Positions 32,103-63,782 of a DNA stretch of 64,000 nt are shown here, in pieces. Made by a program: the position numbers and the translations under genes. The stretch spans positions 34,100,001-34,164,000 of the forward strand of contig NC_083280.1 in assembly GCF_963506605.1 (NCBI RefSeq). The letters are read 5' to 3'. Below the pieces are notes generated by a model. It saw nothing but the letters and a program-made list of their open reading frames with translations, had not been told where the DNA came from and did no database searches. Numbering within the stretch: position 1 is the first letter of the stretch; each line of letters begins with the position of its first letter. This DNA is from Zootoca vivipara. Lineage: Eukaryota.

Positions 32103-32230
32103 NNNNNNNNNNNNNNNNNNNNNNNNNNNNNNNNNNNNNNNNNNNNNNNNNNNNNNNNNNNNNNNNNNNNNNNNNNNNNNNNNNNNNNNNNNNNNNNNNN
32201 NNNNNNNNNNNNNNNNNNNNNNNNNNNNNN
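32103..32230. other. Assembly gap (N run) in the VAMP 3' UTR
   Basis: 128 Ns. Confidence 1.
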
Positions 32231-50016: not shown

Positions 50017-51372
50017 TTTGTTGTTGTTGTTTAGTCGTTTAGTCGTGTCCGACTCTTCGTGACCCCATGGACCATAGCACGCCAGGCACTCCTGTCCTGC
50101 ACTGCCTCCCACAGTTTGGTCAAACTCATGTTCGTAGCCTCGAGAACACTGTCCAACCATCTTGTCCTCTGTCGTCCCCTTCTCCTAGTGCCCTCAATCT
50201 TTCCCAACATCAGGGTCTTTTCCAGGGAGTCTTCTCTTCTCATGAGGTGGCCAAAGTATTGGAGCCTCAGCTTCACGATCTGTCCTTCCAGGGAGCACTC
50301 AGGGCTGATTTCCTTAAGAATTGATAGGTTTGATCTTCTTGCAGTCCATGGGACTCTCAAGAGTCTCCTCCAGCACCATAATTCAAAAGCATCAATTCTT
50401 CGGCGATCAGCCTTCTTGATGGTCCAGCTCTCACTTCCATACATCACTACTGGGAAAACCATAGGTTTAACTATACGGACCTTTGTAGGCAAGGTGATGT
50501 CTCTGCTTTTTAAGATGCTGTCTAGGTTTGTCATTGCTTTCCTCCCAAGAAGCAGGCGTCTTTTAATTTCGTGACTGCTGTCACCATCTGCAGTGATCAA
50601 GGAGCCCAAGAAAGTAAAATCTCTCACTGCCTCCATTTCTTCCCCTTCTATTTGCCAGGAGGTGATGGGACCAGTGGCCATGATCTTGGTTTTTTTGATG
50701 TTGAGCTTCAGACCATATTTTGCACTCTCCTCTTTCACCCTCATTAAAAGGTTCTTTAATTCCTCCTCGCTTTCTGCCATCAAGGTTGTGTCATCTGCAT
50801 ATCTGAGGTTGTTGATATTTCTTCCGGCAATCTTAATTCCGGTTTGGGATTCATCTAGTCCAGCCTTTCGCATGATGAATTCTGCATATAAGTTAAATAA
50901 GCAGGGAGACAATATACAACCTTGTCGTACTCCTTTCCCAATTTTGAACCAATCAGTTGTTCCATATCCAGTTCTAACTGTAGCTTCTTGTCCCACATAG
51001 AGATTTCTCAGGAGACAGATGAGGTGATCAGGCACTCCCATTTCTTTAAGAACTTGCCATAGTTTGCTGTGGTCGACACAGTCAAAGGCTTTTGCATAGT
51101 CAATGAAGCAGAAGTAGATGTTTTTCTGGAACTCTCTAGCTTTCTCCATAATCCAGCACATGTTTGCTATTTGGTCTCTGGTTCCTCTGCCCTTTCGAAA
51201 TCCAGCTTGCACTTCTGGGAGTTCTCGGTCCACATACTGCCTAAGCCTGCCTTGTAGAATTTTAAGCATAACCTTGCTAGCGTGTGAAATGAGCGCAATT
51301 GTGCGGTAGTTGGAGCATTCTTTGGCACTGCCCTTCTTTGGAATTGGGATGTAGACCGATCTTCTCCAATCC
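50017..51372 (-). mobile_element. Bov-B (RTE) LINE, 5'-truncated, RT frame uninterrupted
   Basis: 412-aa ORF with QAGFR, FIDY, GVRQGCILSP and YADD; (CAA)n tail; TSD TCTTAGGTAT. Confidence 0.97.
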
Positions 51373-51439
51373 TCTTAGGTATAACTGGGCACAATTTAAC
51401 ATATCCGTTACTTCTCCACTTTATTTCTCTTGAAGAATA

Positions 51440-56693: not shown

Positions 56694-57878
56694 GTTGTTG
56701 TTTAGTCGTTTAGTCGTGTCCGACTCTTCGTGACCCCATGGACCATAGCAGGCCAGGCACTCCTGTCTTGCACTGCCTCCCGCAGTTTGGTCAAACTCAT
56801 GTTCGTAGCTTCGAGAACACTGCCAACCATCTCGTCCTCTGTCGTCCCCTTCTCCTAGTGCCCTCCATCTTTCCCAACATCAAGGTCTTTTCCAAGGATT
56901 CTTCTCTTCTCATGAGGTGGCCAAAGTATTGGAGCCTCAGCTTCACGATCTGTCCTTCCAGTGAGCACTCAGGGCTGATTTCCTTAAGAATGGATAGGTT
57001 TGATCTTCTTGCAGTCCATGGGACTCTCAAGAGTCTCCTCCAGCACCATAATTCAAAAGCATCAATTCTTCGGCGATCAGCCTTCTTTATGGTCCAGCTC
57101 TCACTTCCATACATCACTACTGGGAAAACCATAGCTTTAACTATACGGACCTTTGTAGGCAAGGTGATGTCTCTGCTTTTTAAGATGCTGTCTAGGTTTG
57201 TCATTGCTTTTCTCCCAAGAAGCAGGCGTCTTTTAATTTCATGACTGCTGTCACCATATGCAGTGATCAAGGAGCCCAAGAAAGTTAAATCTCTCACTGC
57301 CTCCATTTCTTCCCCTTCTATTTGCCAGGAGGTGATGGGACCAGTGGCCATGATCTTGGTTTTTTTGATGTTGAGCTTCAGACCATATTTTGCGCTCTCC
57401 TCTTTCACCCTCATTAAAAGGTTCTTTAATTCCTCCTCACTTTCTGCCATCAAGGTTGTGTCATCTGCATATCTGAGGTTGTTGATATTTCTTCCGACAA
57501 TCTTAATTCCGGCTTGGGGTTCATCTAGTCCAGCCTTTCGCATGATGAATTCTGCATATAAGTTAAATAAGCAGGGAGACAATATACAACCTTGTCATAC
57601 TCCTTTCCCAATTTTGAACCAATCGGCTGTTCCATATCCAGTTCTAACTGTAGCTTCTTGTCCCACATAGAGATTTCTCAGGAGACAGATGAGGTGATCA
57701 GGCACTCCCATTTCTTTAAGAACTTGCCATAGTTTGTTGTGGTCGACACAGTCAAAGGCTTTTGCATAGTCAATGAAGCAGAAGTAGACGTTTTTCTGGA
57801 ACTCTCTAGCTTTCTCCATAATCCAGCGCATGTTTGCTATTTGGTGTCTGGTTCCTCTGCCCTTTCGAAATCCAGCTT
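56694..57878 (-). mobile_element. Bov-B (RTE) LINE, 5'-truncated, with a stop and a frameshift
   Basis: Highly similar to the 50017 copy; TSD GCAGGCGTT; inserted into the tail of an older CR1-like fragment (about 56420-56690). Confidence 0.96.
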
Positions 57879-58838
57879 GCAGGCGTTATGTTATGTTAAA
57901 GAGCTATCAGTAGATTTGTTGATAGCTTTGACAGTTGTCTTTCATGATGTGATCCCAGTAACTTACCATTTCTCTCAATATAGATTTATGCAAATACATA
58001 TATCTAATTATTTGCTTATTCCCTCTTGTTACTAGCTGCTATTTGGTTCAAGGCTGTTTCTTGGTGTAAGAGGAATAGTAAGTTTCACAATAGAAAGTAT
58101 CCAAGTATGGCTAGCAGTACCGTAGTAATGTAGTTTAGCAATGCCCATAAATTGCAATTCCTCTTTCAACCAAAAGCAAATTATCTTGCATGCATCTCTA
58201 GATGGTTGGGAAGAAGAGTGGTGTATGATTGTGAAAGCTTGGGGGCAAGATGTAAAATGTCTAGAAAATCCAGTTAGGGTATATAAACCTTTGGTTCACC
58301 ACGGTTATATTAAGTCTCCTAAATGAGACTCTACTACACTCTAAAAGGGCTTTTGGATAATTTCTCTATCCTTCCATCATTTATATAGAAATGGTGAATC
58401 AGGAAATCAAAAGTGGTGATGTACCATATGACTTTCAACAATATACTAATTTTGTTAATACAACCAAAATATGAACTCATTTTTTCACAATTAATATTTA
58501 TGGGGTTAGATGCAAACTATGTTGGATACACTTAAGATCTGCTGACTTCAATGGGATCAAAGTGTGACTAACTTCATCTAGATTCAACCAGTAGTTCTTT
58601 GCATGCTTATTCAACAACTGTTTTTCTTCCTCCTAGGTGAACTCAAATGTAAAATTTGAAAATGCTGAATACTGATAACAAAAATGGCTTTAAAAATATC
58701 AGAACTGTACAGCAGCTTGTGCTAAGTACAGGTATTCTGTTCTATAACTGAGGAGCTGGATTCTGAACTATATAAAACAATTTGAACTCTTTGAAAATAT
58801 TTTATAACAGTCATTGGCCCTGAAGTTCTTTGCTCAAA

Positions 58839-59062
58839 ATGAGTGAATATTTGGAAATGGCAAATGCAGAAAACATGGATATTCAGATGAAGAATGAACA
58901 GAATTTGGATGCCCTTCAGGAAGATATTGAAATGAATGGTGGATCCAGTGCAAATGATGCAAGTGAAAATTACTCCAGTGGGCATGATTCACATAGCAAT
59001 GAGGGTGAAGAAAATGGGAAAGAGGCAACTATGATTATGGAATCTTTAGACTGTTATAAAAG
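58839..59062 (+). CDS. PER2: PER2 first coding exon (MSEYLEMANA...ESLDCYK)
   Basis: ATG at 58839 with A at -3; aligns to PER2 LQEDVDMSSGSSG...NCSTGRDSQG...GKE; donor AAG|GTAATG, phase 2. Confidence 0.88.
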
Positions 59063-59435
59063 GTAATGATGCTACACAGTAGTTCTGGTTGTATGAATGA
59101 GTGTGTGTATGTATGTATATGTAACATGCACTAATGTAACTACAGAATCATCCAATATGGTGCCTTGGATATGCTTCACTCATCAGTCATTTATATGGAG
59201 ATACTGAGAGTGTTAGTGGTTTTTAAGTCCTAACTTGAGATGTAATATGCTCACATCTTATGAGGGGGTTTCGGTTCCAAGGGTAAAGTGTATACGCAAA
59301 AGTCACCTATAGTCAAAATCATGTTTCCCTTGGAGCTGGGCTGCCGCAAACTGAGGAGGGACCAGAGCCAGCATGCTGAACAGAAAGCAAGGCGAGAGTT
59401 TGAATGCTCTTTTCACTCTGTGTCCTCTTGGGTTA

Positions 59436-59788
59436 GGTAAAGGTAAAGTGACCCCTGACCATTAGGTCCAGTCGTGACCGACTCTGGGGTTGCGCGCTCA
59501 TCTCGCATTATTGGCCGAGGGAGCCGGCGTATAGCTTCCAGGTCATGTGGCCAGCATGACAAAGCCGCTTCTGGAGAACCAGAACAGCACATGGAAACGC
59601 CGTTTACCTTCCCGCTGTAGCGGTTCCTATTTATCTACTTGCATTTTGACGTGCTTTCGAACTGCTAGGTTGGCAGGAGCTGGGACCAAGCAACGGGAGC
59701 TCACCCCGTCACAGGGATTCGAACCGCCGACCTTCTGATCAGCAAGCCCTAGGCTCAGTGGTTTAACCACAGCGCCACCTGGGTCCCT
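59436..59788 (-). mobile_element. Sauria SINE in a PER2 intron
   Basis: Full length; 15-bp TSD TGTCCTCTTGGGTTA (59421-59435, 59789-59803). Confidence 0.92.
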
Positions 59789-60331
59789 TGTCCTCTTGGG
59801 TTACAAGGCACCAAAATAACTTTTAAGCTCTCTACCTTGCTTCTCAGGCAAGGCCTGTTTGATGTGCTGGCTCTGGGACCAGCAGAGATGCTGTCATGAG
59901 ATCTCACAGGATGTCAGACAGACCTGTGAAATCCCATGAGGGCATCCCTACTACGTTAAGAATAAGGCTTCTACTACGAGAATTGTGTTGCACTAGCAGC
60001 TGCTGCATTTAGATCTCACCCACTGAAATAAAAGAGACCTACATTAGTCTTGTCCATTAATTTCATTGGGTCTGCTCTCAAGTAATCTCTTTTATATTAA
60101 ATAACAGTAAATTAAGAATGATCATACCACACATTTTTTAGATCCTTATATGAACAAACAGTCCATATAAGGAAGAAATAATTATAAATCTCAGTTGTCT
60201 TAAGAGCAATGTATACCCAGTCTACATGCAATTAATCATTTTGCTCTTTTAATTAATAAACATTAAGAACTTGGGCTTTGCAGAATACAAACTACATTTA
60301 AACCAGAATTGTTTTTGTTCAGGTTGTCTAG

Positions 60332-60486
60332 CAGCGAACTATCATCTAAATCTAAAACCCAGAAGGAAGTAATAAAAACATTGCAGGAATTAAAAAGGCA
60401 TCTTCCTCCTGATAAAAGGATCAAAGGCAAACCTAGTATCCTGGCAACTCTGAAGTATGCGCTTGGAAGCATTAAGCAAGTTAGAG
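60332..60486 (+). CDS. PER2: PER2 exon (SELSSKSKTQKEVIKTLQELK...LKYALGSIKQVR)
   Basis: 155 nt, phase 2 to 1, AG/GT; alternative in-frame acceptor at 60323. Confidence 0.92.
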
Positions 60487-61059
60487 GTAACTATATCAAA
60501 CCTTCTGTTGAATCAGTGAAATTTAAACTTCATTGTCGAACTACAGTAGCAAGCAGCAAGAGAGATGCTGAATTAATAACTGTCTCTTAGTATGCTGGTT
60601 GGATTCCTGGAGCATTTTATTTGTCATAATCTTCCTCTTCTTGGTCTTTACTTTCTTCAACTAAAACACTAGGGTGGGACTTGTTTGATGTCTATTCAGT
60701 ATGAACACATATTGCACATGAACAGTGTGAAAGCATTGCAGAGTAAAAATTTCAGATTAACTGCTGTAAAACAAGATACCACTTGCATGTTTAGACACAT
60801 TCACTCTCTCTTGCCTTACCTGCCACCTGAGAGGTGGTGTCATAACCCGAGGTGGGGGAGGGTTTTACCCTCTACCTGCTTAGCAACCTGAGAAGGGGTT
60901 GTCTTTTCTGAATGTTTGTTTAAGCCACTGGAAACCTTGATGGTAGAATGCTCACTCCTGAGCTACATTTCTGTTCTAATTACACTACCATGTATTCTTT
61001 ACAGAATATGATTTATTTTAAACAGTGTTATTCAAAATATAAACTTGGTTCTCCTGTAG

Positions 61060-61181
61060 CCAATGAAGAATATTACCAGTTGTTGATGACTAATGAAAGC
61101 TATCCTTGTGGCCTTGATGTATTGTCCTATACTGTGGAAGATGTTGAAAACATTACCACAGAATACATCATGAAGAATGCA
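61060..61181 (+). CDS. PER2: PER2 exon (ANEEYYQLLM...YIMKNA)
   Basis: 122 nt, ctcctgtAG / GTGAGT. Confidence 0.95.
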
Positions 61182-62145
61182 GTGAGTATCCTTGCCCATG
61201 AACACATGCACAAATGATTTTTTAAAAGACTGAACTGGGAGTTGCAGAAATTCACGGTTGTTAATAATCACAGCTTCTATATTTCTAAATCAAATAACAG
61301 CATCACCATGTTACATGACAGGCAGTGTGGTGTGGTGGTTAAAGTGTTAAACCTGGTCTATGAAATGTAGGTTCAAATTCCCTCTTGCCTGTAAATATCA
61401 CTGATGACCCCAGGGCAGGCTGTCTTCTACACACAGTTTGTGTGAGGTTACATTGGGGTAAGGAACTCAGATCCCCATGCTGCTTTCAGCTTTTGGGAGG
61501 AAAGGCAGAATAACATTGTAAGAAATGAAAAATAAAATCTAGAAAACTACTGCCTTCCAAAGTGAACAGAAAATGCTCTCTGTCTAGTTTCAGTGATATA
61601 TGGGGGATCTCTGTGAATTTCCATATTGCACTAATTTTGCAGCCTTTTGAGTGCTTCCAGAGGAAATTCAGTAGCATTAGAAAAACACTTGGGGCTAAAT
61701 TGATCCAACATTCATAATTGTGTAACCATAGTTAAAAGTCAAGAGTAAGCCATGGGGACCTATTCTTTCTAAGTAAATGGGAAGTCTGCCGCAAACAAGT
61801 GCAAAGGCAATCTGCAAGAAGGGGAAGAGGCAAAGAATAGTGTGTATTGATGACTGCTTGGAGTACCCCACACAATCTTATATGTAGTTACTCTTCTGGT
61901 GTGGCATCTAAGAAAATATGCTTTAGATTACAACTGCCAGATTTTTATTACAAAATCATTGATAAATATGCAGGTAAATACTAATACTCTTAACAAGGGA
62001 AAAAATGTAAACCTACCATGTCTCATTGCTTTAGAATATTTGTAACTCACAAAACTTCTGTTTAATATTTTCCCTGACTAAACTAATTTTGACTTGCTAT
62101 GTATTGGGTGCTTTATTGTGTGGTGTTTTTTGTTTTGTTTTTAAG

Positions 62146-62347
62146 GATATGTTTGCTGTAGCTGTTTCTTTGGCTACTGGGAAAATTCTGTACATCTCCG
62201 ATCAGGCTGCCTTTATTCTCCGCTGTAAGAAAGATGTATTTAAAAATGCCAAATTTGTGGAGTTTCTGGCACCTCAGGATGTCAGTGTGTTCTACAGCTC
62301 TACTACTCCATACCGATTGCCATCCTGGACTATTTGCAATGGAGTTG
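62146..62347 (+). CDS. PER2: PER2 exon, PAS-A (DMFAVAVSLATGKILYISDQAA...WTICNGV)
   Basis: 202 nt, AG / GTAAGT. Confidence 0.96.
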
Positions 62348-63730: not shown

Positions 63731-63782
63731 AGTCTACCACCCAGGAGTGCATGGAGGAAAAGTCTTTTTTTTGCCGCATCAG
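63731..63782 (+). CDS. PER2: PER2 exon (ESTTQECMEEKSFFCRIS)
   Basis: 52 nt, tttttatAG / GTGAGG; not in the ORF track. Confidence 0.93.

Follow-up and report, generated by a model that had tools for sequence, protein, structure and literature searches.

Organization of the PER2 5′ Region

The window, that is, the whole stretch of 64,000 nucleotides analysed (G000:C5:34100001-34164000), holds the start of PER2 in its final 5 kb. The gene corresponds to lacertid PER2: exon matches to the annotated Zootoca vivipara protein span residues 1-1270, mostly at 95-100% identity, the exon identities to Podarcis siculus PER2 are lower, and every named match in the protein search was a PER2, the remainder being unnamed. 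A PER1-like paralogue lies at a separate locus (C13). All PER2 features described here are on the forward strand. The first coding exon (58637..59062, with the ATG at 58839) is 100% identical to residues 1-75 of the annotated Z. vivipara PER2 and is covered by contigs over 58700-59060, while its 5′ border was inferred from an acceptor motif. It ends in phase 2 after ...DCYK, at the donor ...TATAAAAG followed by gtaatg, and is separated by a single GT-AG intron of 1,269 bp (59063..60331) from an exon of 155 nt (60332..60486) that starts with SELSSK, also in phase 2, directly after the acceptor tctag. Further exons of 122 nt (61060..61181), 202 nt (62146..62347, the start of the PAS region) and 52 nt (63731..63782) follow, and the gene continues beyond the window. 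The four exon sizes and the phase-2 borders on both sides of the intron are the same as those given in the first-pass annotation of this DNA.

As read from protein models, outgroup PER2 genes would have an intron, a 63-nt exon and a second intron in the place of the single Zootoca intron. This 63-nt exon (D1 exon) encodes the N-terminal degron D1, TSGCSS, except for its final serine, which in the outgroups is given by the 155-nt SELSSK exon. In Zootoca, a tandem acceptor lies 9 nt upstream of the 155-nt exon (60323..60331), in frame and adding three residues. The RefSeq models of Zootoca, P0017 and P0018, use the upstream site at 60323, which is used in none of the four contig sets described below, all of which join at 60332.

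The PER2 intron carries a high-copy SINE (59421..59803), with an insert at 59436-59788 flanked by 15-bp duplications at 59421-59435 and 59789-59803 and with a very high summed depth; we take it to be of the Sauria-SINE type. Without it the intron measures 901 bp. The site is empty in X1 and X19, which carry the organism label of the best holders, and in X8, from another organism. The insertion is recent and, being polymorphic within the species, it was ruled out as the origin of the exon loss. Upstream of the first coding exon, two open frames on the reverse strand (50031-51374 and 56797-57594) matched the Pfam family RVT_1 and are likely LINE fragments. Nine other long frames gave no Pfam match (11 were scanned of the 41 listed in the window), and an Rfam scan of 58600-61300 returned zero matches.

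Direct Joining of the Flanking Exons

The first-pass annotation had proposed that PER2 of this genome lost the D1 exon, and had named junction reads and raw sequence across the intron as checks. The direct joint from 59062 to 60332 was present in X4, X1, X5 and X8, all four of the transcript-like contig sets with coverage of the exons, which come from four studies and three organism labels. Their RNA status is an automatic guess and none of the listed holders is recorded as RNA; the same four sets also skip the following intron or introns. Raw RNA runs X20-X22, of each of which about 6 in 100 was sampled, had zero depth over the PER2 exons and are hence uninformative.

A collapsed assembly or a mis-annotation might still conceal a D1 exon in the Zootoca genome, given that the intron carries a high-copy SINE and such elements are common sites of collapse. 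However, the 15-bp target-site duplication points to one insertion event, and four runs, one of them possibly the source sample, hold 1.00 of 244 sampled words. Run X19, from another study under the same organism label, supplied overlapping intron-containing contigs that tile 58700-61230, and the sole large difference over this region was the missing 368-bp SINE at 59421-59788; therefore, no sequence is hidden in the intron. The intron is also free of N, the only N run of the window being at 32103-32230, and the transcript-like contigs pass over the site. Since contigs with an empty SINE site tile the whole intron, concealment of the exon is already refuted and we give it practically no chance.

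Search for the Lost Exon in the Intron

The statement that nothing like SLM..SEHNPSTSGCS is encoded in the intron was examined with a nucleotide profile of the D1 exon built from 25 outgroup peptides. In the 901-bp intron without the SINE, the profile reached 14.0, the shuffles averaged 14.6, and 115 of 200 of them scored as high; in the two intron halves taken separately the corresponding counts were 18/40 and 35/40. The next PER2 intron, used as negative control, was matched by 12/40 shuffles, while the same profile detected the PER1 exon of this genome at 45.5, a score that no shuffle attained (0/40). Hence no relic of the D1 exon rose above the shuffles in the PER2 intron by a profile whose power is low beyond 30% changed sites: planted exons were found in 58, 47, 20 and 3 of 60 trials at 20, 30, 40 and 50% changed sites, respectively. 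An old decayed copy would escape such a test, and so decay and deletion of the exon cannot be told apart by it. Among 148 open, symmetric phase-2 candidates bounded by AG and GT or GC in the intron, 12 had a GT donor together with a pyrimidine-rich acceptor and none of these was D1-like. A genome-wide search with a 35-residue turtle peptide gave one match on C6 with an E value of 3.4, which proved unrelated when inspected; this search also missed the known PER1 exon and is too insensitive for any relocated exon.

The absence of a D1-like segment was thus confirmed with one correction, as an out-of-frame SSGC is present just inside the intron. It belongs to a peptide ending in HSSSGC (59063-59092, forward strand) and similar to the final residues of the lost exon, with SSGC located 19-30 nt past the donor. 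A motif of this type occurred in 40 of 2,000 shuffles, with the full profile at chance (18/40), and it must be noted that the look-alike was spotted after the fact. An in-frame stop precedes it on read-through, and its distance from the donor is too short for an exon. It is likely a coincidence, although deletion of the upstream intron might conceivably have left it as a remnant.

Distribution of the Exon in Reptiles

We examined 70 squamate PER2 proteins, seven of which do not span the site. The D1 exon was found in none of the remaining 63 models, which represent 34 named squamate species (7 geckos, 3 scincoids, 6 lacertids, 1 amphisbaenian, 5 iguanians, 1 varanid and 11 snakes; dibamids are not included) and one unnamed Logan cluster record. 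They include the P. siculus record CAI43981.1, a cloned cDNA as inferred from its accession. Four Naja models had been flagged by the regular expression for D1; the flag was due to SGY in the preceding exon, and they have no D1. Outside squamates, the exon is present in 2 of 3 tuatara models, in 18 turtle species, in 3 crocodilians and in every listed bird species except for one truncated model. The D1 motif was matched in 79 of 89 non-squamate proteins, and the ten non-matches comprised one regular-expression miss, one truncated model, three skip isoforms from species with both forms, one fish protein and four squirrel or rabbit proteins. Outside the Zootoca genome and the four contig sets, this distribution is that of annotated protein models.

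The joint, the intron and the outgroup models agree on a clean in-frame loss of a 21-codon exon, as first suggested for this genome. The loss itself was upheld when mapped across squamates; its restriction to Zootoca was not, given that the models of 34 of 34 species are without the exon. Judged from the distribution among models, the exon was likely lost a single time in the squamate stem lineage, once tuatara had diverged and before the branching of geckos. It could instead be thought that the exon survives in other squamates as a rare unannotated cassette and was lost in lacertids only, or that several losses took place among squamates. In this regard, non-lacertid squamates are known from protein models only, and both protein queries were without the exon, so that the ranking favours skip isoforms. 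Nevertheless, the member lists of 13 squamate clusters contain no form with the exon, and for crocodilians and turtles the same pipelines do annotate the two forms. Additionally, homology-driven models of Naja and Pseudonaja carry 5-6 unrelated residues at the site, and a squamate representative with the exon would be expected above the listed turtles in the ranking. Survival of the exon in part of the squamates, or its repeated loss among them, is thus improbable. We conclude that the squamate loss is real and clade-wide, exon loss in itself being an already-known type of change.

Probable Optional Splicing and Probable Further Losses in Amniotes

In ten pairs of annotated isoforms, the difference between the two members is precisely the 21 residues of the D1 exon. 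They belong to alligator, crocodile, gharial, Lepidochelys, five pinnipeds and pika (e.g., P0069/P0315, P0314/P0313, P0316/P0312, P0320/P0322 and P0302/P0275), and the gap recurs in a pair from Chelydra. Both forms are therefore annotated, as predicted isoforms, in three crocodilians, two turtles, five pinnipeds and pika, and also in tuatara. The symmetry of the exon is indicated by these 21-residue differences, by the in-frame phase-2 joint of the lizard and by the paralogous exon of PER1 (99 nt, phase 2-2). The D1 exon is thus likely an optional cassette in amniotes, and the annotated pairs suggest that degron D1 is alternatively spliced across this group.

Several mammals are represented by models without the exon. 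It is skipped in all 15 listed models of the marmot and ground-squirrel cluster (15 of 34 members) and in the chipmunk record. The same holds for rabbit and hare, in their RefSeq as well as their Logan models, and for degu (3 of 3 models). These records (P0128, P0129, P0136, P0155-P0180, P0209, P0300 and P0301) are all at protein level. The exon is kept in 5 of 5 models of Sciurus carolinensis and in pika, which has both forms. At the site of the gap, the homology-driven rabbit model P0161 contains a segment identical at 10 of 13 positions to the start of the pika exon, and the homology-driven Spermophilus model P0178 one identical at 5 of 13 positions to the exon of the tree squirrel; both segments look like decayed exon remnants. 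The losses in marmotine squirrels and chipmunk, in leporids and in degu would likely be independent. A loss in eared seals and pika was also considered and rejected, as Callorhinus and pika have both forms; Eumetopias is known from one model only. Point changes within D1 were observed in Mastomys (SGSSS, P0211) and, with SSCS for SGCS, in Manis javanica (P0264) and Mirounga leonina (P0342), which hints at a relaxed constraint on the degron.

Degrons Retained in Squamates

With TSGCSS absent from both the joint and the intron, one of the two degrons known from mammalian PER2 is missing in Zootoca. The other degron, D2 (SSGYGS), lies after the PAS domains at G000:C5:34170209, downstream of the window, and occurs in the 34 squamate models inspected for it. 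The FASP serine cluster follows at G000:C5:34171877 and is found in lizards, python and other snakes, except for two models that skip its exon. An apparent loss of this cluster in snakes was a regular-expression miss. The segment with the cluster is skipped in some turtle and snake PER2 models (P0071, P0052 and P0058). In PER1 of the same genome, the D1 exon is intact at G000:C13:49433258-49433160. The SGxxS-type segment SSGHDS, encoded by the first PER2 coding exon, was considered as a replacement degron and discarded, since alligator and falcon share it and most squamates do not have it.

Functional Meaning of the Loss

According to PMC11223080 and PMC11753889, D1 is located at mouse S93 (human S95) and D2 at mouse S478 (human S480). 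D1 is described in PMC11223080 as a CK1 and beta-TrCP degron and as the only degron of PER1, which bears out the first-pass view of TSGCSS as the PER1 degron with a secondary role in PER2. Mouse PER2 over-expressed in HEK293 cells gained no stability from mutation of D1 alone, and D1 affected PER2 stability only when D2 was also mutated; a larger period effect is predicted there for the double-degron mutant, and PER dimer partners are stated to influence the stability and turnover of each other (PMC11223080). The back-up role of D1 is repeated in PMC11753889.

Starting from these data, the following path can be proposed. The first coding exon of Zootoca is spliced straight onto the SELSSK exon, so that PER2 lacks the 21-residue D1 segment, a short region expected to be disordered. 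The exon would already have been an optional cassette in amniotes, and its skipping may have been tolerated because D1 merely backs up D2 and because PER1 would still supply D1 to PER1:PER2 dimers; afterwards the exon would have decayed or been deleted. The same path is likely in progress, independently, in ground squirrels and chipmunk, leporids and degu. By analogy with the mouse data of PMC11223080, we infer a CK1-dependent, beta-TrCP-mediated turnover of squamate PER2, which would be a substrate of D2 only. Its turnover is predicted to be near normal, the cost being a lost fail-safe and not a reset clock. We consider it probable that a single loss on the squamate stem removed an optional, frame-preserving D1 exon and that PER2 is there degraded via D2 alone at a near-normal rate. 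The effect of the loss is likely mild, because the main degron D2 remains and D1 alone was unimportant for the stability of mouse PER2. Nonetheless, the conservation of the exon in most amniotes shows selection on it outside squamates, and the word 'mild' may be too weak for its role.

A marked change in PER2 stability in the lizard is not supported by the cell data, in which the D1 mutation alone left mouse PER2 unstabilised (PMC11223080). Nor is the suggested link with ectothermy supported, as the exon persists in tuatara, turtles and crocodilians and the models of the endothermic rabbit, hare, ground squirrels and degu are without it. An adaptive reading can also be framed more broadly: removal of D1 would stabilise PER2 or retune temperature compensation where body temperature swings, as in squamates and hibernating ground squirrels. 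The loss is apparently fixed across all sampled squamates, and the 15 of 15 listed marmot and ground-squirrel models and the chipmunk lack the exon, in contrast to the 5 of 5 models of S. carolinensis; the coincidence of squamates and ground squirrels keeps the temperature idea alive at low odds. Against it, the exon is retained by ectothermic tuatara, turtles and crocodilians, and also by Myotis davidii, Eptesicus, brown bear, mouse lemur and tenrec, which we take to be heterotherms, and it is skipped in rabbit, hare and degu, which are not known to hibernate. The larger period effect predicted for the double-degron mutant would favour an adaptive role and the ineffectiveness of D1 alone at 37 °C in cells would not (both from PMC11223080). 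On balance, we regard adaptive loss as quite unlikely.

Also unlikely is the bolder proposal that the D1 exon acts across amniotes as a splice switch under regulation whose 'out' state became fixed at least three to four times (squamates, marmotines with chipmunk, leporids and degu), and that the resulting D2-only clocks differ measurably in stability or temperature compensation from those of tuatara, tree squirrel and pika.

No prior report of the squamate loss or of the optional splicing of the D1 exon was found in the literature covered, which leaves out most subscription papers and supplements; the available part of PMC11825846 contains nothing on the loss. An earlier remark may exist, for instance in a paper on the cloning of lizard Per2, and the D1 gap is visible in public protein records. 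The sampled lizards and snakes and, apparently, ground squirrels, rabbits and degu offer a natural D1-less PER2 together with matched sister groups, and therefore bear on the purpose of a back-up degron in vivo. In such species, mutation of D2 is predicted to be more severe than the effect of about one hour reported in mice. That a degron exon is likely spliced optionally in other amniotes is a separate lead. The significance of the loss has a modest ceiling, D1 being secondary and exon loss familiar.

Comparison with Known Systems

Lineage-specific loss of frame-preserving cassette exons is a general mode of gene evolution. The PER2 case resembles it in the symmetric 63-nt exon, in the skip isoforms of outgroups and in the remnants seen in young losses; it differs in that the exon encodes a phosphodegron that has been mapped in a core clock protein, and in that its loss seems to recur in separate clades. 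The squamate state is also similar to that of the engineered PER2 with a mutated D1, although it is a deletion and not a point change. With respect to the phosphoswitch of mammalian PER2, as presented in PMC11223080 and PMC11753889, the protein is orthologous and both D2 and the FASP cluster are conserved in squamates, whereas D1 and the surrounding 21 residues are missing. PER1, described in PMC11223080 as having D1 only and no D2, is matched in Zootoca by a PER1 that keeps the paralogous exon ending in NPSTSGC. Squamate PER2, with D2 only, is its mirror image, so that each paralogue has one characterised degron.
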